The translations under genes were made by a program, and so were the position numbers. Shown piece after piece: positions 12,895-40,496 of a DNA stretch of 47,923 nucleotides; positions within the stretch are counted from its first letter, which is position 1, and each line of letters opens with the position of its first letter. The stretch comes from an uncultured Fibrobacterota bacterium (GTDB lineage Bacteria > Fibrobacterota > Chitinivibrionia > Chitinivibrionales > FEN-1185): assembly GCA_963753345.1 (NCBI GenBank), contig CAVWBU010000042.1, positions 1 through 47,923 of the forward strand, read 5' to 3'. A model generated the notes under the pieces. It had not been told where the DNA came from and did not search any database. It saw only the letters and a list, made by a program, of their open reading frames with translations.

Positions 12895-14485
12895 AGGGCT
12901 CGCTTGTCCAGATCCATTACCACAACAGGCCGGGCGGCGTTGCCGCGGTGATGGGGCACTATTGCCGCGCATTTCGTGAAGCCTGCGGCGGCCACGGCGC
13001 GTGCGTCATGGTGTGCTGCGCGGGACCGGCGCGCGCGCCCGGATGAGGGAGTGAAAATCGTAAATGTCAAGGAATGCGGCTACCGGACATTCACGTCGGC
13101 CGCCTCGTTTCATGCGGCCGGCCGGTTGCTGCTTGCGCGCCTCGGGAGCATCATCGCCGATCCCTCGCTGCCGCGCCCGGTTATTGTCGCGGGACACAAC
13201 CTCCCCCTGTGCAAGAACGCTGCGCTGTCGCACGCCTTTGCCGGTCTGGCGCGGGACTTCGCCCGCACCGGAGACGATGTCCGCTTTATCTCGGTTGTCC
13301 ACGATTTCGCGGAACAGGGCCGCACAGACCTCATGACGCAGGCGCATCTTCTGGAGCGTCGAGGGATTCGCATCTGGGACGCTCTCTATCCGGATTTGTC
13401 GAACCTGCGCTTTGCGGCGGTTTCGGCAAGCGCGCGCTATGTTCTGCGGAAGGCGGGGTTTCGCGCCTGCCTCGTGCCGAATGCGGTCATCGCTCCGAAT
13501 GGCCGGACAACCGCGGGCGCCTGCACTCGCGGGAAGAGCATACGCGTGCATCGAAACATTGACAATCGCGACCCTGTCCTTTTCTATCCCGGCAGGATCA
13601 TTTCGCGCAAAAACCCTGTCGAGGCGCTCGTGCTGTCGCATGTCTTCTTTTCGTCAACGCTCGTGCTGGGCGAGGACGGGACTTCCGCGGCCGACAGGGC
13701 GTTGTATCGGCGTCTGCAGGCGCTGTGCACGCAGTACAAGGTCCGGGCTGTTTTTGCCGGCGCGAGAAGAACGGGGGATGCGGAGGGGGGCTATTCCCGT
13801 TTGTATAGCAATGCGGATGCGTGCGTTTCGACGTCGGTGCTGGAAGGGTTCGGCTACGGCCTGCGCGAGCCGTGGCTGTACGGCCGGGCGGTAATCGGGA
13901 GGCTTCCGTGCGGGATCGCGCAGGTCGAAATTCCCGGCGGCGCGGGGCTTTACAAACGGTTTTTCGTTCCCAAGGAATGGATCGATGTCGAGGCGCTCAA
14001 ACGTCTCTACCTCCGACAGATGAGGCTCTGCTTCGGCAGTCGTTCGGCAACAGACAGCGCCGGCGCATTTTCCAAAGCCTTCAACCGCGAGTTTGTCCGC
14101 GGCAACGGCCTCGATTTCGGGTGTCTGGACATTGCCACGCAATGCGCGGTTTTTGAAGCGGTCTGCAGGTCCGGCGCGCTCGCGGAACAATGGAAAAACG
14201 CATTCCCCGGTCAGACGCACGTCGCTGGCCATATCGTTGGAAGAGGCATTGCATCCGTCAACCGGCAGCATTGCCGCAAAACAAAGACAGATAGAGGCCC
14301 GGCACGGCAGGGCCGCGTTTACATTGTCGCTCGCGGCATGTTTCGGAAAGCAAAGGGCTGCGCCGGCAAGCACGCGGCCCGATTGCCGCAGGATCCAGAG
14401 GCATTTCTGCAGCCTTGCGCAGTTCCGCCTCCTCGCTACGCCGCAGGCGCCCGGCGCGCGCCATTGCTGCACAGTTTCCCCTTGA
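12891..14485 (+). pseudogene. Glycosyltransferase family 4 protein with two apparent frameshifts (~13035, ~14215)
   Basis: ATG overlaps the xerD stop and reads MKGSLVQIHYHNRPGGV. The middle frame has YPGRIISRKN and STSVLEGFGYGLREPW. A third frame gives the plausible C-terminus IQRHFCSLAQFRLL, stop 14485. May be consensus error. Confidence 0.75.
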
Positions 14486-14541
14486 CTTTTTTCGACATTC
14501 ATTTGATATTTATGATACGGTTTACATGCGAGGAGGCTTAT

Positions 14542-14862
14542 ATGGCGAACGCAACCAAACACGATCTTATCGTCGAGGTATCGAAGTCCACCGGCCTCAC
14601 CCAGGCCGACACCAAGATCGTCGTGGAGGAGCTCCTCGAAACCATCGCCAAGAATCTTGAGGCGGAAAAAAACATAGAAATACGCGGCTTCGGCACGTTC
14701 TACACTCGTATCCGCAAACCCCGTCCCGCCCGCAACCCCAAGACCGGGGAAGTGGTGCCACTTTACAAAAGGGTAGTGCCGCTGTTCAAGTATTCGGGGG
14801 AATTCAAGGGCACCATTTCGGAGGCATTGCAGAAGAGGGGCTCGCCGCAGTCGCCGAAATAG
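14542..14862 (+). CDS. hup: HU/IHF-family nucleoid protein
   Basis: TKHDLI..., IEIRGFGTF, ARNPKTGE; GGAGG RBS before ATG 14542. Confidence 0.92.
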   Translation: MANATKHDLIVEVSKSTGLTQADTKIVVEELLETIAKNLEAEKNIEIRGFGTFYTRIRKPRPARNPKTGEVVPLYKRVVPLFKYSGEFKGTISEALQKRGSPQSPK

Positions 14863-16651: not shown

Positions 16652-17386
16652 TCATCTGCCTTCTTCGAGCCTGCTTATCAGAAACTCCGGCATCCTGATT
16701 TTTCTCATTTTTGCCTGAGCCTTCTGCACGTCGTAGGCGATGCGGTGGTAGGTAAAGACCTTGGCGTCGGTGTCGAACGTGCCGTAACAGGAGTTGGCGT
16801 TCCTGTCGCGAGGCTGGCCCACGCTCCCGACATTTATAAGGAAACGCACGTTGGCTAGGGCGCCGTACTCCAGGCTTTCGCCCGGATGCACATACACTTC
16901 CTTTTCCTGCTCGAGCACGATAATGATGGGGATGTGCGTATGACCCACGAAGCAGAATGAGGTTTCGAAAAACTGGAAATTGAATGCCGCCTCTTCAAGG
17001 GAGGTGATGTAGTACCACATGTTCGGCTCATAGGGCGTTGCATGGACAAAGGTGTGGGAATTTCTGTCTTCCTTGAGGGGAAGGGTGAGGAGATAGTCGT
17101 GGCCCGATTTCTTAAGATTGTCGGAGGTCCACTCGATGGCGATTTTCGCATGAATGTTGAAATGCTGGGTGCTCAACATGCCGACGGCGGCCGCGTCGTG
17201 GTTCCCCAGAAGCACAAGGGAACAGGTCTTCCGGACAAGATCGATGCATTCGTTGGGATTCGCGCCGTAACCGACAATGTCGCCGAGACAGAGGATCTCG
17301 TCCACCTTCCGCGTTTCGATGTCGGCGAGAACGGCTTCCAGCGCTTCGATGTTGGCGTGGATGTCTGAAATCAGGGCGATTTTCAT
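16652..17386 (-). CDS. Calcineurin-like metallophosphoesterase
   Basis: SDIHAN, GDIVGYG, GNHD, GHTH, NVGSVGQPRD. Confidence 0.92.
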   Translation of the reverse strand: MKIALISDIHANIEALEAVLADIETRKVDEILCLGDIVGYGANPNECIDLVRKTCSLVLLGNHDAAAVGMLSTQHFNIHAKIAIEWTSDNLKKSGHDYLLTLPLKEDRNSHTFVHATPYEPNMWYYITSLEEAAFNFQFFETSFCFVGHTHIPIIIVLEQEKEVYVHPGESLEYGALANVRFLINVGSVGQPRDRNANSCYGTFDTDAKVFTYHRIAYDVQKAQAKMRKIRMPEFLISRLEEGR

Positions 17387-17388
17387 CG

Positions 17389-18111
17389 TCAGGTGTTTTC
17401 CATGTATCGGAAGGTGCTGGAGCCGATTTCGATCCTGTCTTTGTGGGCCAGCCGGTGGTTCTTCGTCTTCTTGCCGTTCACCTTGAACTGCCCGAGGAGC
17501 TTTGGCGTTCGAATCCAGTATGCGTCGCCTTCGCGCTCGATGACGAGGTGACCCTGGTCCACCAGAAAACCCGAAATGAAGATGTCGTCGTTCTCGGAGT
17601 CGCCCATCGTGACGAGGGGTTTGTCCAGTTTGTAAATAACATGCTTGTTGATCTCGATGAGGACGGCCGACGACGCCGACGGGTCTTTGTTCTGGTCCGG
17701 AACCACCGACGTCTGCTCCCGCGGAAGCGGCGGCTCGCTCATGGCGATTTCCTCGATGATGGGGGCAGGCTCGGACGCCGCTTCTTCGGCAGTCTTTGGT
17801 TCCGGGGTGCCGGAGGAGGCTTCAAAGAGGATGGCGTACTTGCCGATGGTGATCTTGTCACCGTCGGAGAGTGTGACCTTCTTTACTTTTGCGTTGTTGA
17901 CATACGTTCCGTTGAGCGAATTGAGGTCCGAGAGCACATAATCGCCCTGGGTCGTACGCTCGATCTTCGAATGCCGCCGGGAAATGCCCATGTTGGAAAT
18001 GCAAATGGTATTCTCGGGCAGGCGTCCTATCGTAATAACCGGATCGTCGAGCTCGTACGACTTGACAAGTTCGCTATCGAAGAAAACGATGAATTTAACC
18101 ATTTCAGCCAT
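17389..18111 (-). CDS. Tandem FHA-domain protein
   Basis: FHA1 is canonical (IGR...ISRRH...SLNGTYVN). A Pro/Glu-rich linker leads to a degenerate FHA2 that lacks the GR and SxxH phospho-Thr residues. Confidence 0.88.
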   Translation of the reverse strand: MAEMVKFIVFFDSELVKSYELDDPVITIGRLPENTICISNMGISRRHSKIERTTQGDYVLSDLNSLNGTYVNNAKVKKVTLSDGDKITIGKYAILFEASSGTPEPKTAEEAASEPAPIIEEIAMSEPPLPREQTSVVPDQNKDPSASSAVLIEINKHVIYKLDKPLVTMGDSENDDIFISGFLVDQGHLVIEREGDAYWIRTPKLLGQFKVNGKKTKNHRLAHKDRIEIGSSTFRYMENT

Positions 18112-19470: not shown

Positions 19471-20265
19471 ATGCCAGATCTGAAAATCAAGAGAATGCCG
19501 GTGGAATTGAGGCCGGATCTCAGCATGTGGAAAATCGAAGGCGCCCTGGATTCCGGGAGCATCGGGCGCATTCAAACCGAATTCAATTCGGTGCTGGAGT
19601 CAAAGCAGAGCTTTCTCATCGCCGAAATGTCCGGCGTTACCTGCGTCTCGTCGGCCGCCATGGGGCAGCTTATGGGATGCAGGCAGATTCTGGCGGAACG
19701 GGGCGGCGACCTTGTGATTGCTGGCGTGAGTCTCGACGTCAAGTCGAAACTCAGCGCAATGGGCGCCACCAAGATTTTCAAGTTCTACAACGAGATGCGC
19801 GCCGCCGTCAATGCCTATCACTGGGAGGTTGAGCGTAAGGCCGAAAAGGTGTGGCTGTCGTTTCCTCCGCACCTGCAGTTCGTGCCGCCGGTGCGCCAGA
19901 TGGTGAGCCGCATCGCCCGGCAGAAAGGCTATTCCCAGCGCGATTCGTTCCGCATCGAAACCATTGTCGACGAAGTATGCAACAATGCCGTCGAGCACGG
20001 CTCGGAAAAAATGGCGAAAAACGTCGACCTCAATGTCCAGATAAACCGTGAAAAAATCGAACTTGAGGTGATCAACGCAAGCGATCCCGACAAACTCGAA
20101 GCACTTCGGGCCGTGTCGGCATCCCTGCCCAAGGCCCCGAATGCTAACCTCGGGGAGCGCCGGGGACGGGGTCTTGCGCTCATCAAGATGCTGTCAAACC
20201 ATCTCGACATAAACTTCTCCGGCGATGGAACGTCGGTGCATGTTACCAAATTAAGAGAGGAATGA
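19471..20265 (+). CDS. STAS + RsbW-like HATPase_c_2 fusion
   Basis: N-terminal STAS (GALDS...VTCVSSAAMGQL); C-terminal VDEVCNNAVEHG and RGRGLALI. Confidence 0.87.
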   Translation: MPDLKIKRMPVELRPDLSMWKIEGALDSGSIGRIQTEFNSVLESKQSFLIAEMSGVTCVSSAAMGQLMGCRQILAERGGDLVIAGVSLDVKSKLSAMGATKIFKFYNEMRAAVNAYHWEVERKAEKVWLSFPPHLQFVPPVRQMVSRIARQKGYSQRDSFRIETIVDEVCNNAVEHGSEKMAKNVDLNVQINREKIELEVINASDPDKLEALRAVSASLPKAPNANLGERRGRGLALIKMLSNHLDINFSGDGTSVHVTKLREE

Positions 20266-20624
20266 GTATGGAGTCCCAGATCGAACTCGAATACGACGAC
20301 ATCAAGGGTCACAGCGACACCAAAATGGTCAAATTCATCGGCGATCTCGATGCCACCAACGTTGAAACGGTGCTGGAGAAGATCTGCAACCTTTTCAACG
20401 ACGGGTTCATCAACATCATCGCCGATTTTAAGAAGCTGCGCTATGTCAACAGCACGGGGCTCGGCATCCTGCTCCATTTCAGCAAGTCGGCCAAGGAGAA
20501 GAACGGCAGTTTCAAGATAGCAAACGTCAACGAAAACGTGTACGAAATAATCGAAATCATCGGGGCCACGACGCTTCTGGAGATCTACGACGAGGTCGAC
20601 GAGGCCGTTGCCGCGCTCAAGTAA
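20262..20624 (+). CDS. STAS anti-anti-sigma factor (RsbV/SpoIIAA-like)
   Basis: GDLDAT, LRYVNSTGLGILL with the phospho-acceptor Ser; ATGA overlap with the upstream gene. Confidence 0.9.
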   Translation: MSMESQIELEYDDIKGHSDTKMVKFIGDLDATNVETVLEKICNLFNDGFINIIADFKKLRYVNSTGLGILLHFSKSAKEKNGSFKIANVNENVYEIIEIIGATTLLEIYDEVDEAVAALK

Positions 20625-24814: not shown

Positions 24815-25732
24815 CTAGCGTATATCTAAATCAAGTTGATCGCAGCAGCTATGCAGGCGTCTGATTGGAATGCGGGGATGCTTTTCCGGAAAGGAAATAT
24901 CTGTCTTTGGAAGATGATGTTCCTGTGATTGCACAAGTGATAGAACCGATTGATCGATTTTAATGCGAGGAACTCCGAGTCGTTCTTCCGCTATTCTTGT
25001 ATACTCTTCGGATATATCACCCAAGATTGCATATCGTTCGTTGATGAGGCTCGCTTCACCTGTGGTCCCCGATCCACTCATCAGGTCAATGGATAGTTCA
25101 CCTCTTGCGGTGGCCATGAGAAGTGTCTTTTCGATGACGGCAAGCGGCTTCTGTGAAGGATGCCCTGTCTGTTCTTTTCGCCCAACAAATCCGCATAATA
25201 GAGACTCTTCTATCACGCTTGGCGGACCAGGAATAAATAGCAGTTTGCCCTGCTGCATCTTTTCCCGTTGCACATCATTTAGGAAGTTTTCAACGTGCAT
25301 AACTGCATTAGGAGTTGTAAGATGAAGACATGTCATTTGCGCAGACCGCCAACCGCGAATACGAGATGGAGAATTCTTGTAGAACCACGTCAGCCAGCAT
25401 TTGAGTGTCAATGGTTAAGGAAGTATTCGAACAAATCGTGCGACAATTTCGGGAAAGCCCCACAGAAAAACATGATCTGACAGAGGTGCGACACACTTTA
25501 GAAGTTGTGGAAGATATTCATCATAGTCTTCACGTACACCGCCGACTCCTTTGTTGTACCATGGATCAAGAATACAGCATTGTGCATGAAATCCGAGCGA
25601 CAATAGCAGTTGGGATGATAGCTCAATATCGAGAGGGGGAAGAATTACAACACCATTCTTCCCAAGGTTAGTAGCAATTGTGTCGCGGAGTTCCAGAAGT
25701 TCAGGGTGCGCGACTTGAGTATGTGTTTTCAT
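24815..25732 (-). pseudogene. M.KpnI-like beta-class N6-adenine DNA methyltransferase interrupted by an in-frame TAA (25415-25417)
   Basis: Motif IV DPWY lies in the 5' part; GHPSQKP and DLMSGSGTTG (motif I) lie in the 3' part. Both ORFs are in the same frame (...RILP*PLTLKCW...). AT-rich. Confidence 0.85.
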
Positions 25733-26409
25733 TTGTGGTGGATTTCCCCCTTTTCGTCTATCTGGTATCCAAAGTATTCCAAAAGGAACTTAAAAATAAT
25801 TTCCTTCTCAGGACGGGGAGAGAACTGAACAATAGCATAGGTGTTCATCTTCCCTGTCGCTGAATCCCAGTAGTTCTTCTTTGTAACCTGATGGCGACCG
25901 CAAAGAGCCGTCCACTGATTTGGATCGGAAGGATCTGCGTCCGGATTCAACGAATGTGGGTTCCTGTGGTCTGGGGTCAATTTTACCCGTCCACCACCGA
26001 CCGGATCAACTTCACCATCACGCAGGCCGCATGCGTCACCACCTTCCGACCATTCACAACGGTATTTGGCTCTTTCGAGGATGGCAATCCAAGTCTTGTC
26101 GTTTGGCCTAACCCGTTTTCCAGCTTTCTTACGCTTTTCTTTGGTCGGCATTAAATATTCTTGAACTTTCAGGTCACCACGATTTCGCCATGAAAGAATC
26201 GTGTATCCGTCATCAGTGCGCAGTTCTGACAATCGTTGATGCCAATTCTCTGGCTCTTTCTTGGTTTTCGGATCGCGAGCTGCACGTTGAATTAATTCGC
26301 GGTCGAGTACTTTGCCCAGATTGTTCAAGAACAGTGCTTCGATTCGTTTCTTTACGCTTTTCTGTCGATAAGACCCTTTGAATTCTCCATAAACTTTTCT
26401 GTCAGCCAT
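25729..26409 (-). CDS. R.KpnI-like HNH type II restriction endonuclease (predicted GGTACC)
   Basis: RIEALFLNNLGKV, PENWHQRLSELRTD.GYTILSWR, VKLTPDH and ALCGRHQV.KKNYWDS match my recollection of R.KpnI; CCCH zinc ligands present; GAAAGGA RBS before ATG 26409. Confidence 0.9.
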   Translation of the reverse strand: MADRKVYGEFKGSYRQKSVKKRIEALFLNNLGKVLDRELIQRAARDPKTKKEPENWHQRLSELRTDDGYTILSWRNRGDLKVQEYLMPTKEKRKKAGKRVRPNDKTWIAILERAKYRCEWSEGGDACGLRDGEVDPVGGGRVKLTPDHRNPHSLNPDADPSDPNQWTALCGRHQVTKKNYWDSATGKMNTYAIVQFSPRPEKEIIFKFLLEYFGYQIDEKGEIHHK

Positions 26410-26436
26410 GTCGTCCTTTCTTTCATTCACGATCTT

Positions 26437-26934: not shown

Positions 26935-28572
26935 CTAGGTAAGTCCCACGGCTTTTCCGTTTGCAAGGATTTTTATTCTTGCCGCCGCAGGCACCTTGGG
27001 AAGGCCGGGCATGGTGACGATGTTGCCGCAGATCGCGACCACGAACCCTGCGCCCGCCGACACTCTGATCTCGTTGACCGTGATGCGGAAATCACGCGGC
27101 CGGCCGCGCAGCTTGGGGTCGTCGGAAAGCGACAAAGGCGTTTTCGCGATGCACACGGGCAGGTTGCCGTACCCGTGTCTGGTGATGAGCTCAAGGTCGG
27201 CCCGCGTGGCATGGTCGAACGACACGCCGGTTGCGCCGTAGACCATCTGCGCCACGGTCTCGATTTTCTTGTCAAGCGGCATGGAGAGCGGGTACAGGTA
27301 ATTAAGCTTTCTCGTGTTCCTCTCCACGGTTCGGAGCACCGCGTTTGCAACCGGTTCCGCGCCCCTGCCGCCGTCATGGAAATGGGTGGCTACCTCGGCC
27401 TCGACGCCGTGCTTTCCGCAGAACGTTACTATTTTGTCAAGGTCCCCCGGCTTGTCGCCGTCGAAACGGTTGACCGCCACCACCGGCTCCAGCCCAAACA
27501 GCCGGATGTTTTCGATATGCTTGGCAAGGTTGCCCAGCCCTCCGTCCTTCGTGTACCCGCCGTGGTATTCCACGGCCCGCGCTGTCGCGACGATCACGGC
27601 CGCCCTGGGCCTGAGGCCCGCGATCCGGCACTTGATATGAAAGAATTTTTCCGCGCCGAGGTCGGTTGCGAATCCCGCCTCGGTCACCACGTAGTCGGTG
27701 AGCTTGAGCGCCATGCGCGTCGCGATGGCGGTGTTGGTGCCCTGCGCGATATTGGCAAAGGGCCCGCCGTGCACAAAGGCGGGCGTGCCTTCCATGGTCT
27801 GGACCATGTTCGGGTCTATCGCGTCGCGCAGCAGGACCTGCATGGCGCCCACGGCCTTGATGTCGCGCGCGAACACGCGTTCGCCTTTGTACGTGTACGC
27901 CACCACCATCCTGCCGAGCATGTCGCCGAGGTCGAAGAAGTCGCGGCACAGGCACAGCACGGCCATCACCTCGGACGCGGGCGTGATGTTGAACCCGTCT
28001 TTCCGCGGAATGCCGTTCTTGACTCCGCCGAGCCCCACCACGATCTCGCGGAGCGCGCGGTCGTTGAGGTCGATCACGCGGCGCAACACCACGCGCCGGG
28101 GATCGATGGAAAGCTCGTTGCCGTGCTGCAGATGATTGTCGACCATGGCGGCGAGCAGGTTGTTCGCCTTTGTCACGGAGTACATGTCTCCCGTGAAATG
28201 CAGGTTCACCGCCTCGGCCGGGGTCACCTGTGACCTGCCCGCGCCCGTGCCGCCGCCCTTGATGCCGAAATAGGGCCCGAGCGACGGTTCGCGTATGCAA
28301 ATGGAGGTCTTCTTCCCGAGGCGGCGCAGGGCGTCGCCGAGGCCCACGGTGGTGGTGGTCTTGCCCTCGCCCTGGGGCGTGGGGGTCATGGCGGTCACGA
28401 GGACAAGGTTCCCGTCGGGCAGGCTCTTCCGCGATTCGTATTCGTCAATTGGCACCTTGGCAATGTAATGGCCGTGCGGGAGGATGGCCTCGGCGTTGAG
28501 GCCGAGTTCCTCTGCCACCTCGCGTATCCTGCGCGGAGGCTGTCCGTTCCTCGCTGCATTCTTATCCGTCAT
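26935..28572 (-). CDS. fhs: Formate--tetrahydrofolate ligase
   Basis: TPTPQGEGKTT, GIKGGGTGAG, LHFTGD, HGGPFANIAQG, VTEAGF, TMPGLP. Confidence 0.96.
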   Translation of the reverse strand: MTDKNAARNGQPPRRIREVAEELGLNAEAILPHGHYIAKVPIDEYESRKSLPDGNLVLVTAMTPTPQGEGKTTTTVGLGDALRRLGKKTSICIREPSLGPYFGIKGGGTGAGRSQVTPAEAVNLHFTGDMYSVTKANNLLAAMVDNHLQHGNELSIDPRRVVLRRVIDLNDRALREIVVGLGGVKNGIPRKDGFNITPASEVMAVLCLCRDFFDLGDMLGRMVVAYTYKGERVFARDIKAVGAMQVLLRDAIDPNMVQTMEGTPAFVHGGPFANIAQGTNTAIATRMALKLTDYVVTEAGFATDLGAEKFFHIKCRIAGLRPRAAVIVATARAVEYHGGYTKDGGLGNLAKHIENIRLFGLEPVVAVNRFDGDKPGDLDKIVTFCGKHGVEAEVATHFHDGGRGAEPVANAVLRTVERNTRKLNYLYPLSMPLDKKIETVAQMVYGATGVSFDHATRADLELITRHGYGNLPVCIAKTPLSLSDDPKLRGRPRDFRITVNEIRVSAGAGFVVAICGNIVTMPGLPKVPAAARIKILANGKAVGLT

Positions 28573-28620
28573 GCATGGCTCCGGAAAATGATGCGCCCCG
28601 CAACCCTGCGAAGCTAAAGA

Positions 28621-28649
28621 AAGATAGCCTATGGATTTTGTAAAATCAA
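28621..28649 (-). promoter_or_regulatory. Putative fhs promoter overlapped by the inverted repeat GATTTT-GT-AAAATC (28634-28647)
   Basis: Minus strand reads TTGATT-17 bp-TATCTT; the palindrome covers the -35 box and spacer. Confidence 0.5.
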
Positions 28650-28810
28650 CAGTCATGGAAGGCGCAGTGCACCGGTCCGGGGTGATCGAAGGCCGCTGGC
28701 GCCGGGCTTCCCGGTGCATTGCGCATTGTGTGTCATGCACCGCGAACGGAAGATATATTAAGGGAAATCTCACGGGATTTTCCGGTCACCGGCAAACAAA
28801 GGACGGCCCC

Positions 28811-31240
28811 ATGCAGGAGAAAATTTCGCTCGACGGAGAGCTTGTCGGCACGCTCTCGCACCAGCTCAAGTCGCCCATCACCACGATCCAGTCGCTGCTC
28901 AAGACCGTTGCGGACGGCTTTACAGGGGAGATAAGCCCGGAGGCGCTCCGGTTCATCATTCGGGCTGCCGGCAAGGCGGAAGAGGCGGACCTGCTGATTG
29001 CCGACCTGCTCAGCTACCGGTACTATTCCCGGGGCGGAAAGATTGACAGGGAAGAAATCGACCTCGGGAGTCTCGTGGAGACCGGGGCGCACGCATGCGC
29101 CGCCGAGGCTTCCGACAAGAACGTGTCGCTGCGCGTGCGGACGCCCGAAGGCCTTGCGGTGCTCACGCGCGGGGATGGTCGCGGCCTTGCCATGGCCGTG
29201 CGAAATCTGGTGGAGAACGCCGTCAAGTACACGCCCCAGGGAGGGCACGTGATTGTCACACTGAGTGCGCCGCGGGGCCGAGCACCATGCGTGCTGCAGG
29301 TGACGGATTCGGGCTACGGCATCGCTGCGGCGGATATGCGGTCCATATTCAAGCCGTTTTTCCGTTCCCCGCGGCATACGGCGACGGTGTCGGGCACGGG
29401 CCTTGGCCTTGCGATCACCAAGACGATTGTCGAGGCGCACGGCGGGACCGTTTCACTGGAGTCGAAAGAGGGGAAAGGCACCACGTTTACGGTTGCTCTG
29501 CCATGCAGCGGCGTGCAAAAGAAACTCCGCCGCGCGGCCGCGCGCAAGCGCGTGGTGATTGTCGGCGGGGTGACGGCCGGCCCAAAGACCGCGGCGCGCC
29601 TGAGGCGTCTCGACGAGCGCTGCGACATCACCATCGTGGAAAAGAGCGAGTTCTTGTCTTATGCAGGGTGCGGCCTGCCGTCGTACATCAGCGGCGGGGT
29701 GCGCTCGCCGAAGTCTCTTATGTCAACGGCGGACAACACGGTGCGCGACATCAACTTCTTTGAATCCATCAAGAACATCCGCGTGCTGAGCAGGACCGAG
29801 GCCGTCGGCATCAACCGGGTGAGGAAGACGGTGCGGGTGCGCGATCTCGCCGCGCACGAGGCGCGCGAGCTTCCCTACGACGTGCTCGTGCTCGCCACGG
29901 GCGGCCAATCGCGCCTGCCGGCGATTCCGGGAATAAGGCAAAAAGGCATTTATTCGCTGCACGGCATGGAAGACGCGGAGGCGATCCGCGCCGAATGCGC
30001 TTCCAAAAACGCCCGTGACGTTTACATTATAGGTGGAGGGCTCGTGGGGATTGAAACCGCCGAGTCGCTCGTGGATGCCGGCGCGCGGGTCACTATCCTG
30101 GAAAAGAGACCGCTCGTGCTTTCTTCGCTGTTCGACGGGGACATTGCCGAAAAGATCCAGAGCGCGCTCAGCGAAAAGGGGATACGGGTCGTCACGGGCG
30201 TGGCGGTTTCGAGGATTGCGAAAAAGGACGGCCGCTTAATGATTGTCACGGGCGCCGGCAGGTTCGCCGCCGACCTTATCATAGTGTCGGCCGGAGTGCG
30301 GCCCAATTCCTCGCTGGCGCGAAAGGCCGGGCTGCCGGTGAGCGCGGCCGGCGCGATCCGCGTCGATTCGCATCTGCGGACCAAGGATCCGTCCGTGTAT
30401 GCCATCGGCGACTGCGCGGAAAGCGTCAACTGCATAACCGGACGCAATGAGTACTGGCCGCTTGGCTCTGTTTCCACGAAGATGGGAAGGATAGCGGCCG
30501 ACAACATCGCGGGCAGGCCGTCGCGGTATCTCGGGTCGATCGGCACCACCATGTTCCAGAATTTCGGCGTTTCCATCGCCCGCACGGGCCTCACGGCTGC
30601 GAGCGCACGCGAACACGGTTTTCGCGCTGAATCAATCGTCGTAACCGGCCTCGACAAGGCGCATTATTCGCGCGATGCCGACTATGTCACGATCAAGCTG
30701 ATCGCCGATGTAAAAACGCGGGTGCTGCTTGGCGCGCAGGGTTACGGAAGGGGAGACGTGGTGCGGCAGATCCAGATTGCCGCGGCGGCAATCATGCAGT
30801 CGGCAACGCTCACCGATGTGTTCGATCTCGACCTCGGATATTCCCCATGCTTCAACAATCCCATCGACCTTGTCCAGATCGCCTGCTGCATGCTTGCCGC
30901 GAAAATCGACGGGTTCGTAAGGACCACGACCTTGTCGGGGCTTGAGCGCAGGGGAACGCGGGCGCACCTGGTGGACGTGTCGCCGTTCGCCGACCATGTG
31001 GCAAATGCCATCCCCGGCAGCGTGAGCGTTCCGCTGGAGAACCTCCGGCGGGAGGGGGTTCCGTTTGACAAAAGAGAAACGTGTGTACTGTACAGCAGGA
31101 CCTCGTCGCGCGCATACGAGGCCTACCGGTATCTCGTTACCAAGGGGTATGCAAGCATCTCGATTCTTGAAGGCGGGTTCGTCTTCTGGAGCAACGGTGC
31201 GATCCGGCCGCGCCCCGCGGCCGTGCAGGCCTTACAGTAG
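28811..31240 (+). CDS. Histidine kinase (HisKA-HATPase) fused to a CoA-disulfide/persulfide reductase-like flavoprotein and a rhodanese domain
   Basis: Kinase boxes: H SHQLKSP, N NLVENAVKYT, G1 DSGYGI, G2 GTGLGL. Then VVIVGGVTAG, SYAGCGLP, GGGLVGIE, YAIGDC, LDLGYSP. Rhodanese IPGSVSVPL...LYSRTSSRA...LEGG. Confidence 0.92.
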   Translation: MQEKISLDGELVGTLSHQLKSPITTIQSLLKTVADGFTGEISPEALRFIIRAAGKAEEADLLIADLLSYRYYSRGGKIDREEIDLGSLVETGAHACAAEASDKNVSLRVRTPEGLAVLTRGDGRGLAMAVRNLVENAVKYTPQGGHVIVTLSAPRGRAPCVLQVTDSGYGIAAADMRSIFKPFFRSPRHTATVSGTGLGLAITKTIVEAHGGTVSLESKEGKGTTFTVALPCSGVQKKLRRAAARKRVVIVGGVTAGPKTAARLRRLDERCDITIVEKSEFLSYAGCGLPSYISGGVRSPKSLMSTADNTVRDINFFESIKNIRVLSRTEAVGINRVRKTVRVRDLAAHEARELPYDVLVLATGGQSRLPAIPGIRQKGIYSLHGMEDAEAIRAECASKNARDVYIIGGGLVGIETAESLVDAGARVTILEKRPLVLSSLFDGDIAEKIQSALSEKGIRVVTGVAVSRIAKKDGRLMIVTGAGRFAADLIIVSAGVRPNSSLARKAGLPVSAAGAIRVDSHLRTKDPSVYAIGDCAESVNCITGRNEYWPLGSVSTKMGRIAADNIAGRPSRYLGSIGTTMFQNFGVSIARTGLTAASAREHGFRAESIVVTGLDKAHYSRDADYVTIKLIADVKTRVLLGAQGYGRGDVVRQIQIAAAAIMQSATLTDVFDLDLGYSPCFNNPIDLVQIACCMLAAKIDGFVRTTTLSGLERRGTRAHLVDVSPFADHVANAIPGSVSVPLENLRREGVPFDKRETCVLYSRTSSRAYEAYRYLVTKGYASISILEGGFVFWSNGAIRPRPAAVQALQ

Positions 31241-31609
31241 CTTTTGCACCTTGGCAAGCAGGGTTTTCGGGTCCACCGGCTTAAGGACGTAGTCGTCCAC
31301 CGGCAACCATGACGCGTCGCCGGCCTCCGACTTGTAATCGATGCGCGTTTCCCTGTCGACGTTGGTGATCATCAGTATCTTAACATTACGGAACTTCCCG
31401 TCCGCCTTGATTTCCCGCGCCGCCTCGAACCCCGAATTAAGCGATTCCATCATCACGTCGAGGATCACGAGGTCGGGCTTGAACGTTGCCATCAGCGCAA
31501 GCCCGTCGGCCTTTGTTCCTGCCTCCCTGAGATTGTACGGGCCGGCCAGGACCGTTTTCATCACTTCGCGGAGCGCGGCATCGTCGTCGATGATGAGGAT
31601 CTTCTTCAT
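31232..31609 (-). CDS. Single-domain response regulator (receiver)
   Basis: ILIIDDD, PDLVILDVMM (phospho-Asp), LMIT, LKPV; extra DASWLPVDDY segment. Confidence 0.92.
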   Translation of the reverse strand: MKKILIIDDDAALREVMKTVLAGPYNLREAGTKADGLALMATFKPDLVILDVMMESLNSGFEAAREIKADGKFRNVKILMITNVDRETRIDYKSEAGDASWLPVDDYVLKPVDPKTLLAKVQKLL

Positions 31610-31780
31610 TGCATTTCCTTTTCCCGGGTGAGGTGAAGCGTTGCTGCCGTCGCCTATAATTTACAATGTCGGGAAGCTCGCTCGAAAAAAAAATTTTCGC
31701 CGGCGGTTGCACCGCGGGACATTGGGAAAGGGATTTCCACCCGGGCACCGGGTATCAAAAACAATCTCCTTAAGATAAAT

Positions 31781-31809
31781 TTGACTAAAGGCGCAAAAAA
31801 CCTTATATT
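31781..31809 (+). promoter_or_regulatory. Sigma70-type promoter of the GH3 gene
   Basis: TTGACT-17 bp-TATATT. Confidence 0.6.
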
Positions 31810-31936
31810 CCCTACATTATATTTATGGGGACTGATGACCGGCCGGATTTGTTCTATCGGAACATCGAAATCCTGGCGGTCGGAACAGTCTCACCTGACC
31901 ACAAAGAGCAAACCCAGGAGCAAGGAGGGAATTGAT

Positions 31937-34235
31937 ATGAGACGTGTCCGGTGTATCTCAATCATGTGTGTCGTGTTGCTTGCCTATGCCATGGTATCTG
32001 GGCAGAGCGGCGACTTCCAGACCAAAGGCAGGGTGCTTGTGGCCGGTCAGCCTCTTGCGATGGCCACCGTCACCTACCTGAATGTGGCGCAGCGTCTGTC
32101 GTGGGATTTCTCCCTGTTGGACGGGACTTTCGGAAACACGGTTTCCACCAAGAACCCCCTTCAGCAGGACGCCACGGTTTCCCTTCCCTCGGAAGGCGTC
32201 GTGACCATCGACATCTTCGAGATGAGCGGGAAGCTTGCGGGCACGGTGAGCGGCAAACTTGACAAAGGCATCTACACCCTGCGGCCCCTTGCGGCAAAGC
32301 TCGCCCAGTCGATGTACATGCTCCGGATCAGGGCCGGCAACGCCGTAACGTATCAGAAAATGCTCAACGCGGGATTCAACAACGCGGGCTACACCATTTC
32401 CCTGTCCTCGAAACGTGAGCCCATGGTGATGGCAAAGAAGCTTGCCGCCATCGACTCGATACGCGTGGGGAAAACCGGATACACGCCCGTGGTGGTCCCA
32501 ATTTCATCATACACCGACAACGTGGGCGACGTGACGCTGACCCCCGTGGACATTGAAGGCGAGATCAATACCCTTTTCGGCCAGATGACGCTGGCTGAAA
32601 AAATCGGTCAGCTTCGTATGCCGGTTACTCCGGACGTGGGCACCGTGACGGGTGGGGAATGCGGCAGTATCTTTGGCGGCGGCGGAGCATTGCTGGGTTC
32701 CAGCATTGCAGGATGCGCCGATAACATTGATAACATCCAAAAAGGAATGGCAACTACCGCCAGGAAAATCCCGATCCTGGCTGCGTACGACTTTGTCCAC
32801 GGCGCAAGTGCAGTGCCGGGGGCAACCATGATGCCGCACAACCTGGCAATGGGTGCAATTCAGGATACGTTGCTTCTCCAGAAAGCATTCCGGGTATGCG
32901 CGCTTGAGGTCCGCGGCGCGGGCTGCAACTGGGGATTCGGGCCGTGCATAGCCGTCATCCGCGATGACAGGTGGGGACGCGCGTACGAAGGTTTCTGCGA
33001 AACCCCGGAGCGCACACAGATCATGGCGCGGCACGCGGTTCTCGGCTGCCAGCTTACCGACCTTTCCTGTCCCATGAGCCTATGCTGCATGCTGCAAGCA
33101 TTTTGCCGGCGACGGCAACACGGTGAACGGTGTGAACGCAGGGACAACCGTTGGACCCGATGCCACGGCCCGTGCAATAAATCTGCCCGGATACTCAGCC
33201 GCGGTCGCCGCGGGTGTGGCAACCATCATGCCCTCATTTTCCACATGGTGCGATGGCACGCCGATGCATATGAATAAAAAGCTTATAACAGGCTGGTTAA
33301 AATCCGACTCGGCCGGCCAGCCGAACTTTCAGGGTTTCATCGTCGGAGACTGGGCTGCGGCCTCTATTCCGGGCAGCATCGATGCAGGGCTCGATGTGCC
33401 GATGTCGCCGGATAACGGCGCCGGAACTGCCTCTGCACTCAACAACAATTATACTGCGTACCAGGCGAGAATCGATGACGCCAGCAAGCGCGTTCTTCGG
33501 GTAAAAGCCTGGATGGGCATGCTCAACCCGGCGGGCTCGTACTTGACTGACAGGAGACTGACCGCGCTTGTCGGCTGCGCAGCGCACCGGGACGTGGCCC
33601 GCGCGTGCGTGAGGGCCGCGTGCGTTCTTCTCAAGAACGCCGGTCCTGCTATTCCGATTCCCAAGACCGCGAATGTCGCGATCTGGGGCCAGGCCGGAAA
33701 CGATGTCGGCATCCAGTGCGGCGGATGGACCGTAAGCTGGCAGGGACAAAGCGGGGCGATTCCCGGCGGCGGCGGCACCACAATCTTGCAGGGTGTCCAG
33801 TCGCTTTGCACGGGTACGGTGACCACTTCAGGGACTTCCGATTATAATATCGCGGTCCTCAGCGAAAATCCCTACGCCGAAACGAGTTTCCCCAATGTCG
33901 CCATAACCGGCAATGATGCGACCGGCACGAACGCAACAGTCATAACGCAGGCCGCGGCAGCGCATGCCGCCGGGAAAAAGGTGATCGGCATTCTCATTGC
34001 AGGAAGGGCGCTTGACATATCAGGAGTGCTTCCCAGCTGCGACGCGTTTATCTGGGCGTGTCTGCCCGGTTCCGAAGGCGGACTGGGCATAGCGCAACTG
34101 CTGTTCAAAGACCAGGGGTACGGGTTTTCGGGCAAGCTGCAGGTTACGTGGCCCAACAACTCGACCAATGAACCCATCAACGCCGGAGACGGACAAACCG
34201 GTTTGTTCGCCTACGGGTTCGGGCTCACCGACTAG
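31937..34235 (+). pseudogene. Secreted GH3 beta-glucosidase/exo-glucanase with one apparent +1 frameshift (~33077)
   Basis: MTLAEKIGQ, DFVHG and RDDRWGRAYEGF in the first frame; ACCKHFAGDG, GDW and CGGWTVSWQG in the next frame. Removing one base near CCCATGAGCCTAT restores a full-length enzyme. Likely consensus error. Confidence 0.85.
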
Positions 34236-37620: not shown

Positions 37621-38730
37621 TCACCTCAAAACCATCATTTGTTTTGTTGCCAACACATGGTCCGACTTGAGCGTGACGATATACACCCCTCTGTTGAAGC
37701 TCGGAACAGCGATACTTCCGGATTCCTTGACCGCAATTCGCAGCATTAATTTTCCGGAGCAGGAATAGATTTCCAACCATGCGGGTTCTTGTCCACCGTA
37801 CAGATATTTCAATTCCTTGTTCTTGGTTATCGTAACCGATGCATTCCCCAGAAAAGCATAATTCATCGTCGGCTTATTATTGTTGATGACGGGAGTGACA
37901 GGCGGCAAACCAAAATCAAGAATATAGTCGGGTCCATATTTAGCCCAGTTCCCCAGTGAGGCCGGAAGATTAGGCGATGGACAGGTAAACAGGCTGTGAG
38001 GATCGTCGTAAGGAAAACTGTACGAAGTTGGACAAGCAGCCTTTTTTATAGCAGCGCAGGGTGAACCAACATCACCACTGCAATAAAAACCATTGGTGTC
38101 GAGCACCCCATTAATGGTATCCAAATTCAACATTGACGCGGGAGCGGTCAAATACAAGTCCGTTATGCAATCACCCTCCCCCCCGCAAGTCCATCCTTGT
38201 CGACCCACCGCCGCGTCCAACGCGACACTATCGGGGTAGAATGTTCCCGGCAGCGGATAAAATAATATGGGAAGGTTGTAACCGTCGACAAGACTTACAT
38301 CGTACCAATCGAGATGCCAATTCGCCGCAGTCCTTGAGTCCATATTGATCTCAGCGAGAGTAAACGGTCCGTTTTGATATTTTGGATCCCAATACCCCCA
38401 GATTCTTGCCGATGCCCAATTGTTTGGAACCTGAAATATCGTGTCATGTCCCATCTTCAGCGGAAAAGTAAAGCTCATGCCACTGCCGGTTGCACGGACA
38501 GTAAGGTCTTTGTGCCAGTAATTGTGGAGGTAGAAATACCGCGTGCCCACACCATATTGGCCGGTATGAGGCCATGTGTCTGCCACGGCCGGTTGGCACA
38601 CGGAGCATTGAACGATGGTATCTGCAACTGCGAGAGCAAATCCTGAACATGGTAACATTGTTGTTTGGACAGGAACAGATAAGGCCAGGAAGACAGACAG
38701 CAGGATCGCTGCAAAAGAGAACCTCTTCAT
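37621..38730 (-). CDS. Thaumatin-family (PR-5/GH152-like) secreted protein, copy 1
   Basis: ARIWG, TLAEI, DWYDVSLVDGYNLP and KAACPTSYSFPYDDPHSLFTC signatures; GGAGG RBS; C-terminal sorting-type domain. Confidence 0.87.
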   Translation of the reverse strand: MKRFSFAAILLSVFLALSVPVQTTMLPCSGFALAVADTIVQCSVCQPAVADTWPHTGQYGVGTRYFYLHNYWHKDLTVRATGSGMSFTFPLKMGHDTIFQVPNNWASARIWGYWDPKYQNGPFTLAEINMDSRTAANWHLDWYDVSLVDGYNLPILFYPLPGTFYPDSVALDAAVGRQGWTCGGEGDCITDLYLTAPASMLNLDTINGVLDTNGFYCSGDVGSPCAAIKKAACPTSYSFPYDDPHSLFTCPSPNLPASLGNWAKYGPDYILDFGLPPVTPVINNNKPTMNYAFLGNASVTITKNKELKYLYGGQEPAWLEIYSCSGKLMLRIAVKESGSIAVPSFNRGVYIVTLKSDHVLATKQMMVLR

Positions 38731-38920
38731 ATACCTCCCCCTTTTATTTAATGATACTTGTGAAGTTTCATGATGGCGTCGAAGGTTAGGATCGGATGTT
38801 GATAATATAATGCTTTTTTGCGGGATTGGCAGTGTAAATGAGATTAGGAAAGTGGAAGGGGTTGGGCGTTGCCCCAGGTGTATTCGAGTTGGCAGAAAAT
38901 CAGAGTCAAGAATTCTTGGT

Positions 38921-39345
38921 GGGGGCACCGCTGCGCGTTTCCCCCTGGCCCCAAGCCTCCTCGTCGCACGATGCGCGCCTGCGGGGTCTCGGGGCACACC
39001 CCCTCCTGCGAAGGTGCGCGCCAAAGTCGCTCGCTTGACGCTCGCGAGTCGTCGCACCTTCGCAACGCAACCTCATTGGAGCGCCGTTTCGCGGCGGGAA
39101 TTCAAGAATAAAAACACTGGTTATTGCGGGTAAGGAATTGCCCTCCGGCCTCAGGGCTGGCGCTGATGGCGTACAAGAAAAGAATGGGAAGTGAACCTAT
39201 GCCCCGCGCCATGCCGGACTGGAGGGTGAGCCAAAGCGAATTGCCGGCCGACCCGGCCGATAGGCATTGGGCGGATCGGCAACAAGGCGAGTAGCCGAGC
39301 CCGGAAGGAGGGCCGCCGCCGCGCCTTAGCGCGGCGGGGCGCCCA
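38921..39345 (+). repeat. Bipartite repeat copy 4 (divergent A 38921-39064, B 39201-39345)
   Basis: A keeps GGGGG/CCCCC, CCTCCTCG..CCTGCGG and ACCCCCTCCT, but its last stem is replaced by GCGAAGGTGCG/CGCACCTTCGC. B is near consensus. Confidence 0.85.
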
Positions 39346-39383
39346 AGCATTTATTATGTATTCTATTATCTTGACAAATACAA

Positions 39384-40496
39384 TTATCTAGTGACCATCA
39401 TCCTCGTCGTCTTTACAGCCCCGTCCGTTCTGAGACTGACAAAGTACATCCCCCGTGCCATTGCAGGCACACGCACTGTTCCCGAAGATTCCGTGAGGGG
39501 AATCTCGCATATCACTTTCCCGTTGCAGGAATACAACGACAGCCGGGCATTCGGTCCGCCGGCATAAGCGTATTTCAATTCGCCGTGTCTTGTCATTGTC
39601 ACTGCCATCGCACCAATGAAAGTGTAATTTATGGTCGGCTTATTATTGTTGATGACGGGAGTGACAGGCGGCAAACCAAAATCAAGAACATAGTCGGGTC
39701 CGGCCGCCGTGCCAGCGGCATTCACGGTCGGCGATGGACACGTAAACAGGCTGTGAGGATCGTCTAAGGCAAAACTGTACGAGGTGGGACAGGCAGCCTT
39801 TTTTAAGGCGCGGCATGCGGCTTGGCCCGCGCCGTCGTCCGAGCAATAAAAACCGTTGGTATCGAGCACCCCGTTAATGGTATCCAATTTCAGCATTGAC
39901 GCCGGAGCGGTCAAATACAAGTCTTTTTCGCAATCATCCTGACCCCCGCAAGTCCATCCTTGTCGGCCATAGGTCGAGTCCAGCTTGGGATTATCAGGTG
40001 GGAACGTTCCCGGCAACGGATAATACAACATGGGAAGGTTGTACCCGTCAACCAGGCTCACGTCGTACCAATCGCATCCCCACCCTGCATGTTGCGTGAT
40101 CTCTGCGAGGGTAAACGGTCCATTGGCGTATTTGGGGTCCCAAAGGCCCCAGATTCTAGCAGATGCCCAACCGTTTGGGATCTCAATTATTGTGTCGTGT
40201 CCAATCGGCAGCACAAAAGTAAGGTTTGTCCAACCGGCACCGCCATTGCCGTTTACATGGACAGTGAGGTCTTTGTGCCAATAATTATGCATGTAGTAGT
40301 GCCGCGTGCCCGCACCGTATTTGCCGTTATTGTGAGGCCATGTGTCTGCTACGGCCGGTTGGCACACCGAGCATTGAACAATGGTATCTGCAACTGCGAG
40401 AGCAAATCCGGAACATGGTAACATTGTCGTTTGGACAGGAACAGATAAGGCCAGGAAGACAGACAGCAGGATCGCTGCAAAAGAGAACCTCTTCAT
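39384..40496 (-). CDS. Thaumatin-family (PR-5/GH152-like) secreted protein, copy 2
   Basis: Same signatures; the first ~55 aa are identical to copy 1. Confidence 0.87.
   Translation of the reverse strand: MKRFSFAAILLSVFLALSVPVQTTMLPCSGFALAVADTIVQCSVCQPAVADTWPHNNGKYGAGTRHYYMHNYWHKDLTVHVNGNGGAGWTNLTFVLPIGHDTIIEIPNGWASARIWGLWDPKYANGPFTLAEITQHAGWGCDWYDVSLVDGYNLPMLYYPLPGTFPPDNPKLDSTYGRQGWTCGGQDDCEKDLYLTAPASMLKLDTINGVLDTNGFYCSDDGAGQAACRALKKAACPTSYSFALDDPHSLFTCPSPTVNAAGTAAGPDYVLDFGLPPVTPVINNNKPTINYTFIGAMAVTMTRHGELKYAYAGGPNARLSLYSCNGKVICEIPLTESSGTVRVPAMARGMYFVSLRTDGAVKTTRMMVTR

Follow-up and report, generated by a model that had tools for sequence, protein, structure and literature searches.

Two groups of described proteins come closest to the histidine kinase discussed here, which is encoded on the 47,923-nucleotide contig CAVWBU010000042.1 (assembly GCA_963753345.1; this whole stretch is referred to below as the window) of an uncultured Fibrobacterota bacterium. 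One group includes the HisKA sensor kinases, such as HK853, ZraS and the WalK/PhoR-type proteins, in which a dimerisation and histidine-phosphotransfer (DHp) hairpin bearing the phospho-acceptor histidine is joined to a catalytic ATP-binding (CA) domain with N, G1, F and G2 boxes. The other comprises the NADH-dependent persulfide reductases and related coenzyme A (CoA) disulfide or persulfide reductases, known as Npsr, CoADR-RHD or CoAPR enzymes. According to the available portions of PMC7969121 and PMC9405070, the rhodanese cysteine of these enzymes takes up sulfane sulfur, a tightly bound CoA carries it in a swinging movement to the cysteine adjacent to the flavin adenine dinucleotide (FAD), and part of the CoA pocket is formed by the rhodanese domain itself; for the Enterococcus faecalis CoAPR, the same portion of PMC9405070 describes both cysteines, that of the rhodanese being C508, as needed for turnover. 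The window protein unites the two groups in a single chain of 809 residues. Its kinase part resembles HK853 of Thermotoga maritima (3dge) and ZraS (9jfj) with phmmer E values of 1.9e-25 and 1.6e-26, respectively, but unlike these kinases it has no transmembrane segment, HAMP, PAS or other N-terminal input domain and no signalling helix before the DHp hairpin, and carries instead a large domain C-terminal to the CA domain.

When considered as a whole, the protein is a sensor kinase of the two-component kind whose input module, lying after the kinase core, is without precedent, and not the founder of a new category of system. The inputs of sensor kinases almost always precede the core, whereas here the sole candidate is a whole redox enzyme that follows it. 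In our judgement the odds lie slightly in favour of a cytoplasmic two-component sensor whose input is this C-terminal flavoprotein, derived from an NADH-dependent persulfide reductase of the Npsr/CoADR-RHD type. The flavoprotein is the only plausible input, and the reading is the best available one, because the architecture is conserved, an N-terminal sensor is absent, both halves of the protein are conserved and the neighbouring receiver is dedicated to the kinase. The preliminary description of this DNA had likewise proposed a flavoenzyme acting as a C-terminal sensor that gates the kinase; the architecture, its conservation and the dedicated receiver agree with that proposal, while the residue that follows the phospho-acceptor histidine (position H+1), a Gln in 111 of 118 homologues, qualifies it, in that what is gated may be a slow kinase or a phosphatase.

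The fusion is real and belongs to a large, old and widely conserved family that is uncharacterised. A word-indexed protein search scored 7999 proteins, 2719 of them at E ≤ 1e-3, and all 120 matches listed are proteins of 735–822 residues with HATPase_c, Pyr_redox_2 and Rhodanese domains from metagenome-assembled genomes (MAGs) of Chitinivibrionales, Chitinispirillaceae and Spirochaetota, named, if at all, merely 'FAD-dependent oxidoreductase' or similar. This combination is conserved in at least 118 full-length homologues and in 79 loci. The loci are the best 79 of 487 relative-encoding stretches in contigs taken from one genome per species (80 loci with the window included); all 79, every one from a MAG, hold the full fusion, which answers the concern that homologues might occur only as two separate genes. 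They are spread over about ten phyla, with Fibrobacterota, Raymondbacteria, Spirochaetota, Acidobacteriota, Planctomycetota, Verrucomicrobiota, Nitrospirota, Methylomirabilota, Desulfobacterota and Chloroflexota among the lineages represented. Within a sample of 201 genomes of the window's own phylum the distribution is patchy, with the kinase in 11 of them: five of seven genomes in the window's own family, four of 46 in a second family and none of the 78 in the largest. The source genome (4.5 Mb, 94% complete) holds a single copy of the gene.

A search of 1.84 billion representative sequences with the flavoprotein-rhodanese part alone returned kinase-fused sequences interleaved with ordinary CoADR-RHD enzymes of 560 residues, together with fusions of the same enzyme to TusA and DsrE, to a second rhodanese with a YgaP membrane anchor, and to NIR_SIR, C_GCAxxG_C_C and cNMP-binding domains (representatives P0226, P0173, P0182, P0203 and P0258); the cNMP-binding fusion may be another regulatory use of the enzyme. 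In a FastTree phylogeny of 170 flavoprotein rows, all 57 fused sequences and two non-fused ones fell into one clade (SH-like support 97), and a quick IQ-TREE run on 87 rows recovered the same clade with an SH-aLRT of 93, holding 41 fused and three non-fused sequences. Among these non-fused rows, P0123 is a truncated fragment of a fused protein; P0122, of 561 residues and of the Ser type discussed below, begins at the linker and is a singleton on a 3.4-kb contig; and P0160, the further row of the IQ-TREE clade, is degenerate and lacks the redox cysteine. The three do not show common two-gene versions of the protein. These trees are most simply explained if the fusion arose once and if losses, or gene calls that were cut short, are rare, although this is not proven.

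As the preliminary description had it, the gene is one uninterrupted frame that opens directly with HisKA, its histidine lying in S-H-Q-L-K-S-P, followed by a complete HATPase; the open reading frame (ORF), the codons and the Pfam matches agree on this (Table 1). The open frame extends from 28631 to 31240 on the forward strand, and direct reading of the codons gives ATG at 28811, CAC for His17 at 28859-28861, CAG for Gln18 at 28862-28864, TGC for Cys287 at 29669-29671, AGC for Ser762 at 31094-31096 and the stop TAG at 31238-31240, with an AAGGA about 9 nt 5' of the ATG. In the alignment of the 118 full-length homologues, all N-termini lie about 15 residues ahead of the phospho-acceptor histidine, and this supports both the start at 28811 and the absence of an N-terminal or membrane sensor, which had been claimed from the window alone. 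The HisKA match is just under the Pfam cut-off of 26.9 bits, as opposed to the above-threshold scores of 30.2–34.6 bits in the relatives P0124, P0130, P0131 and P0134, and the best NCBIfam kinase matches (PnpS, PhoR and WalK) are every one under cut-off.

From a structural point of view, residues 245–809 have the fold and domain order of the Npsr/CoADR-RHD/CoAPR enzymes. Foldseek placed the C-terminal 565 residues on Archaeoglobus fulgidus Npsr (AfNpsr, 6pfz) with a target-normalised template-modelling (TM) score of 0.95 and an rmsd of 2.1 Å over 548 columns (phmmer E = 1.8e-100), and gave 0.90 for the Bacillus anthracis CoADR-RHD (BaCoADR-RHD, 3icr), 0.92 for the E. faecalis CoAPR (8a56) and 0.88 for the Shewanella loihica Npsr (3nta). 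Common to the fusion and these enzymes are the two-dinucleotide-binding-domain FAD/NAD(P)H fold with its dimerisation domain, the FAD and NADH motifs, the single flavin-proximal cysteine and the C-terminal rhodanese; a loop matching residues 60–66 of AfNpsr, which lie over the CoA pocket, is retained along with the pocket-forming rhodanese domain, so that a CoA site is predicted in the fusion as well. Cys287 aligns with Cys42 of 6pfz and is kept in 114 of the 118 homologues and 79 of the 80 loci, whilst G252/G253/G257, G408/G410, E431 and D534 are invariant in the 118-sequence alignment; an acidic residue such as E431 usually accompanies a preference for NADH. In contrast to the known enzymes, the fusion bears a 240-residue histidine-kinase core at its N-terminus and, in the clade of the window, a serine in the rhodanese.

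An AlphaFold2 monomer model built with the 118-sequence alignment (mean predicted local distance difference test, pLDDT, 86.6; predicted TM score, pTM, 0.73) shows DHp helices at residues 9–34 and 43–73, the CA domain at 81–237, a low-confidence linker at 238–246, whose pLDDT falls below 50 at residues 240–242, and the flavoprotein-rhodanese body. The spacer from P231 to I250 is exactly 18 residues long in 106 of the 118 homologues despite its variable sequence, and mostly 22 in the clades that keep the rhodanese cysteine; this fixed length suggests a geometric constraint between two dimeric modules, the kinase and the flavoprotein. No chain in the Protein Data Bank (PDB) covers both halves by sequence or by fold, the best query-normalised TM score being 0.64.

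Both catalytic positions of the C-terminal part had been named in the preliminary description, a redox cysteine and a rhodanese serine, and the codons and the alignment with Npsr bear them out. By phmmer, Ser762 aligns with Cys519 of the AfNpsr rhodanese and with the matching cysteine of BaCoADR-RHD, so the catalytic rhodanese cysteine that characterises the Npsr class is absent from the window protein and present in sister clades of the fusion. Serine occupies the position in 118 of 118 close homologues, within a strongly conserved loop (Y-S-[KR]-T-S-[SA]-[RG]-A-Y). Across the 79 loci and the window, the residue is Ser in 44, Cys in 28 and Gly in six, and unclear in two whose C-termini are frame-disturbed; the Ser proteins group in a single subclade (support 100), and the Cys-bearing fusions, mostly from Planctomycetota, share the motif F-C-x-I-S-L-R-G-Y-E-A. 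The cysteine is ancestral, since it is found both in these fusions and in the nearest unfused enzymes, and the serine is, on comparison across the family, a derived and clade-specific state. The Cys-to-Ser change is conserved among close homologues, and the term 'disabled' rhodanese describes one clade only. The family has thus kept its flavin/Cys(/CoA) centre throughout but has lost the external sulfur-acceptor cysteine on at least two occasions, with Ser and Gly as the replacements. In the Ser-type subclade formed by L017, L020, L023 and L026, a cysteine stands just before the serine (L-C-S-K-T-S-S-R) and Glu is found at H+1 (S-H-E-L-K-S-P), the two reversions travelling together.

Downstream of the kinase gene, a stand-alone receiver overlaps its 3' end by 9 bp (31232-31240), as the preliminary description had stated along with the divergent position of fhs; coordinates and Pfam matches confirm both. 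The receiver consists of a Response_reg domain without any output or DNA-binding domain. Its acidic pocket (D9, D10), phospho-acceptor D51, T82 and K110 are invariant in 22 aligned orthologues, so that this genetically linked protein has the residues of a phosphotransfer partner, and phosphotransfer from the kinase is predicted. The orthologues also share the segment A-G-D-x-x-W-L-P-V-D-D-Y, which takes the usual place of helix 4 and is likely to be an output surface. After clustering of 2296 neighbouring ORFs, the receiver emerged as the sole widely conserved neighbour, in 40 of the 80 loci. In a recount of arrangements restricted to loci whose downstream flank measures 450 bp or more (38 of the Ser clade and 33 others), a convergent receiver lies within 300 bp in 19 Ser-clade loci and in four others, an upstream one in one and two loci, respectively, a receiver elsewhere within 2 kb in four and one, and a co-directional one in a single Ser-clade locus. 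In the 201-genome phylum sample, an orthologue (E ≤ 1e-25) is present in ten of the 11 genomes with the kinase, lying beside it or within about 1.5 kb, and in none of the 190 others; the eleventh kinase genome is 82% complete and has the kinase on a short contig. The strict co-occurrence of the two genes marks the receiver as a dedicated partner of the kinase.

The surroundings of the kinase at other loci point to hydrogen, formate and NADH-linked modules. A systematic tblastn search of the flanks with 26 queries found matches in 21 of the 80 loci (hydrogenase 10, NuoEF-like 10, formate dehydrogenase, FDH, 3, Rex 2 and fhs 4); in the window's own genome, matches to the same queries would be within reach of just 2.95% of all positions, so that the enrichment is about nine-fold. 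One of the marker genes, HycI, has zero to two copies per genome in five of the genomes concerned. At least ten different arrangements occur across phyla, and 14 loci were annotated with Pfam. The receiver is divergent and 125 bp away from a NiFe hydrogenase operon (Fer4_22, NAD_binding_1/DHODB_Fe-S, small and large subunits, HycI) in a Thermoanaerobaculia locus (L047) and stands on the same strand just 3' of genes for a NiFe large subunit and a fused NuoE/F in Planctomycetota (L055). In Deltaproteobacteria (L072) it follows FdhA on the same strand, and in Spirochaetota (L027) it is divergent from hydrogenase-type modules with an FdhA-like gene. In Sedimentisphaerales (L043) the kinase itself precedes a Rex-like gene and an operon of the membrane-bound hydrogenase type; elsewhere it faces convergent HycI and Mbh/Mrp-type subunits in L009 and L063 and a convergent FDH operon with FdhD, MobA and Pta in L038, and is flanked by NuoE/F/G-like genes in L021, L030 and L032. 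A physiological rationale for the hydrogenase and formate association comes from PMC9431562, the consulted part of which presents CoADR-like NSR enzymes as an alternative reductant sink that competes with hydrogenases in fermenters.

The tie to formate and one-carbon metabolism suggested in the preliminary description has to be recast in these broader terms. The gene fhs adjoins the fusion in three of the 79 loci, the three closest relatives, and was rejected as a family-wide partner, whereas the hydrogenase, FDH, NuoEF-like and Rex context recurs in several phyla. The clustered neighbouring ORFs contained no conserved sulfur-metabolism neighbour, and such genes occur in isolated cases, such as a double rhodanese and a multihaem cytochrome in L044. 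As for the window's own genome, several redox systems are encoded in it. A cluster for a cytoplasmic NiFe hydrogenase of the NAD(P)-linked type lies at C19:70612-74500, NuoEFG-like genes are clustered at C32:7426-21544, a further cluster, at C34:74306-78633, is of the membrane-bound hydrogenase type, and C27:95767-96306 holds a Rex-like gene. The bacterium looks like a fermenter that evolves H2.

In the mechanism that we propose, a dimer of the flavoprotein would bind FAD and probably CoA, and NADH would reduce its FAD/Cys287 centre, which a thiol oxidant would then oxidise again; this oxidant could be sulfane sulfur or a persulfide in the clades that retain the rhodanese cysteine and perhaps CoA disulfide, CoA persulfide or O2 in the Ser clade. 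The conformation set by this redox state would, by way of the fixed-length linker, restrain or release the adjacent ATP-binding domains and so determine how far the receiver is phosphorylated or dephosphorylated. Having no DNA-binding domain, the receiver would act through protein–protein contact, and its targets would likely lie in the disposal of reducing equivalents, that is, in H2 and formate metabolism, because of the genomic context. With regard to the primary signal, the NADH/NAD+ poise is our leading candidate, held tentatively; sulfane sulfur or CoA persulfide seems rather unlikely for the family at large, with better prospects in the Cys clades; O2 or peroxide appears improbable; and other signals share what is left. 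The Cys clades may retain sulfane-sulfur sensing by the canonical route, and the Ser clade, the window protein included, more likely reports the NADH/NAD+ or thiol-disulfide state.

Several observations weigh against this picture. The window protein is probably unable to sense sulfane sulfur in the canonical way, because it has lost the rhodanese cysteine, required in the E. faecalis CoAPR according to the section of PMC9405070 cited above. The pTM of 0.73 was rejected as evidence of how the domains pack, since the flavoprotein by itself accounts for 70% of the chain. No receiver is found nearby in 13 of the 38 Ser-clade loci and 26 of the 33 others of the recount, and a distant orthologue was detected in one of five Ser-clade genomes without an adjacent one. 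About three quarters of the loci lack hydrogenase, formate or NADH-module neighbours, and the nine-fold enrichment was obtained against the background of one genome and from related, non-independent genomes. The H-box, too, departs from the rule: the histidine is followed by Gln18 in place of the usual Glu or Asp, a point on which the preliminary description was silent, so the acidic residue expected at H+1 of a HisKA kinase is missing; at the level of loci, H+1 is Gln in 70 of 78 and Glu in seven, and among the 118 homologues Glu is found in six. In 29 loci of the Cys clades, moreover, the position of the N-box residue N132 is taken by Ala. As stated in the accessible part of PMC8292422, the H+1 acid is strictly conserved in HisKA kinases, where it is the general base for autophosphorylation, partnered by the N-box Asn, and is required for kinase activity but dispensable for phosphatase activity; the same part describes DrBphP, the Deinococcus bacteriophytochrome and a natural HisKA protein with a non-acidic H+1, as a phosphatase without kinase activity. 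Autophosphorylation may accordingly be weak in the family, with a slow kinase that needs activation and a phosphatase-biased enzyme both as candidates, given Gln at H+1 and Ala in place of N132 in the Cys clades.

These facts make up the case for the first alternative, in which the core scarcely autophosphorylates and instead dephosphorylates the receiver or takes phosphate back, the redox state of the flavoprotein controlling the phosphatase; the receiver would be phosphorylated by acetyl phosphate or another kinase, and the redox input would be the same as in our preferred explanation with the direction of output reversed. The many loci without an adjacent receiver fit it too, as does, in a single case, the phosphotransacetylase gene beside L038. 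DrBphP offers a parallel, in that it is a HisKA transmitter without Asp or Glu at H+1 that works as a signal-controlled phosphatase (so the available text of PMC8292422), but its H+1 is His and its H+4 is Glu, against Gln and Ser in the fusion family, and its photosensor is N-terminal. The phosphatase activity described in that text goes with Thr or Asn at H+4, whereas the homologues have Ser (95 of 118) or Ala (16 of 118), and seven loci have returned to Glu at H+1. His17 is conserved in 117 of the 118 homologues, and N132, N136, D166, G168, G170, F183, G195, G197 and G199 are invariant in these 118 sequences, as expected of a working kinase. Since the histidine and all ATP-binding boxes are conserved, the transmitter is probably functional, though non-canonical. 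We consider the phosphatase-biased alternative fairly unlikely.

Less probable still is that the protein is an enzyme first, its flavoprotein being a working NADH-dependent disulfide or persulfide reductase or an NADH oxidase that the kinase either regulates or merely accompanies in expression. The conserved cofactor motifs and Cys287, the presence of both catalytic cysteines in the sister clades and the NADH oxidase activity of AfNpsr mentioned in the portion of PMC7969121 at hand all favour this, as does the promiscuity of the CoADR-RHD module in partnering sulfur-trafficking domains (TusA with DsrE, a second rhodanese, NIR_SIR). Such a reading would, however, leave the kinase without any input and the strict co-occurrence of a dedicated receiver unexplained; the fusion also persisted through at least two losses of the rhodanese cysteine, the score of 346.7 against the NCBIfam CoA-disulfide reductase model TIGR03385 is far under the equivalog cut-off of 578.8, and the neighbourhoods hold no conserved sulfur metabolism.

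The junction between the halves (29500-29550), where a stop or an indel would have betrayed an assembly error, is spanned without an indel by contigs from two studies besides the probable source, one covering 29406-30243 with 0 differences (X5 record 15) and the other 29484-29732 with one substitution and 0 gaps (X9 record 21), and X4 records 9 and 10 likewise overlap there. An artefact that joined two separate genes, to which the split GH3 and serpin genes of the window (see below), pointing to frame problems or pseudogenes in the assembly, and the kinase-less homologue P0122, a singleton, might lend some colour, is refuted by these contigs, by a 93%-identical copy in a second MAG (L001) and by the uninterrupted architecture common to the 118 full-length homologues and the 79 loci, and can be dismissed.

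Returning to the preferred reading of a redox-controlled transmitter, the fusion differs from the known redox sensors in the nature and position of its input. Flavin or cysteine redox sensors include NifL, MmoS and Aer, which use a PAS-FAD domain, and ArcB and RegB, which use quinone or cysteine switches, and persulfides are sensed by CstR, SqrR and FisR. In all of them, as proposed for the fusion, the redox state of a flavin or of cysteines controls the signalling output; the sensing element in them is a small PAS-FAD domain or a pair of cysteines, located inside the transmitter or on its N-terminal side, whereas the fusion has a complete disulfide reductase with a rhodanese at its C-terminus. 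Rex, a cytoplasmic sensor of the pyridine-nucleotide redox poise linked to fermentation and hydrogenase genes, we take to be a candidate functional analogue; it binds DNA as a one-component regulator and employs neither flavin nor cysteine chemistry, in contrast to the His-Asp output of the fusion to a receiver that lacks a DNA-binding domain. The Rex-like gene beside the fusion in L043 combines Put_DNA-bind_N and CoA_binding, and a further match lies in L054. No paper on the fusion was found by a full-text search that did not cover supplementary files, and no NCBIfam model exists for it, in line with the earlier remark that no characterised protein of this architecture was known, since none turned up in the literature search or in the PDB.

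If a redox enzyme does control the core from behind, its mechanism would extend the known regulation of sensor kinases, and the natural variants of the family (Cys, Ser or Gly in the rhodanese; Gln or Glu at H+1) amount to ready-made mutants for following the conversion of a persulfide reductase into a sensor. The sequencing runs that hold window DNA come from peat, sediments and soil, with no RNA runs listed among them, and the family is widespread in uncultured anaerobes of these habitats. As it also adjoins hydrogenase and FDH genes repeatedly, it may be a general regulator of the release of H2 and formate, which feeds methanogenesis and sulfur cycling in peat, sediment and soil. A more far-reaching version of the proposal, which we regard as doubtful, is that a complete flavoenzyme of the persulfide-reductase type, with its CoA 'swinging arm', serves as a C-terminal sensor that weighs NADH against a thiol or sulfane-sulfur sink and toggles a His-Gln transmitter between slow kinase and phosphatase, the receiver acting post-translationally on hydrogenase or FDH complexes. 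Anaerobes of many phyla would then switch the disposal of reducing equivalents between H2 or formate and other sinks by this means, and the system would parallel, as a two-component pathway of bacteria, both Rex and the archaeal sulfur-response switch.

Table 1. Kinase-flavoprotein fusion, its domains and the adjoining genes in the window (residues in 809-residue numbering; bit scores from Pfam)
Feature	Residues and key positions	Position	Strand	Basis
Histidine kinase/Npsr-type flavoprotein/rhodanese fusion (P0001)	809 aa	28811..31240	+	ORF, homologue-supported start, Pfam
DHp/HisKA helical hairpin	9-73; His17 followed by Gln18	28835..29029	+	AlphaFold2 helices; HisKA 9-68, 23.2 bits
Catalytic ATP-binding domain	81-237; N, G1, F and G2 boxes	29051..29521	+	HATPase_c 121-232, 100.9 bits
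Short basic linker	238-246	29522..29548	+	Low pLDDT, fixed spacing
FAD/NADH pyridine-nucleotide-disulfide oxidoreductase core with dimerisation domain	247-692; Cys287	29549..30886	+	Pyr_redox_2 247-538, 205.7 bits; Pyr_redox, 57.4 bits; Pyr_redox_dim 587-682, 47.5 bits; Foldseek
C-terminal rhodanese	about 700-795; Ser762 at the catalytic Cys position	30908..31195	+	Rhodanese 717-795, 45.6 bits
Single-domain receiver, convergent (P0002)	125 aa	31232..31609	-	Response_reg, 64.6 bits
fhs (formate-tetrahydrofolate ligase), divergent context gene		26935..28773	-	FTHFS, 751.8 bits

The true start of fhs probably lies downstream of 28773, because its FTHFS domain begins at residue 72 of the ORF. A scan for promoters and terminators from 28400 to 31900 gave weak consensus matches only and was not used. 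Elsewhere in the window, a glycoside hydrolase of family GH3 (31781-34235, forward strand) is split into the overlapping ORFs 31781-33277 and 33123-34235, both with parts of the GH3 N-terminal domain, owing to a frameshift, a pseudogene or an assembly error, and a serpin (46223-47561, reverse strand) is split into an N-terminal ORF at 46956-47561 and a C-terminal one at 46223-46762. The tandem ORFs at 24815-26430 on the reverse strand, namely an N6_N4 DNA-methylase fragment of 198 aa, a 105-aa ORF and a 233-aa ORF without a Pfam match, are possibly restriction-modification remnants, and a 628-aa ORF at 12976-14862 (forward strand) has an HU-type DNA-binding domain at residues 527–612 only, its first 500 residues being without a Pfam match. 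Two adjoining ORFs of 478 and 370 aa at 37621-40496 (reverse strand) each carry a thaumatin-family domain, which is uncommon in bacteria. Signalling genes are also found about 8–11 kb upstream of the fusion, where an FHA-domain protein and a metallophosphoesterase (16652-18111, reverse strand) stand near a partner-switching module made up of a STAS+HATPase_c_2 fusion (19471-20265) and a STAS protein (20262-20624), both on the forward strand.

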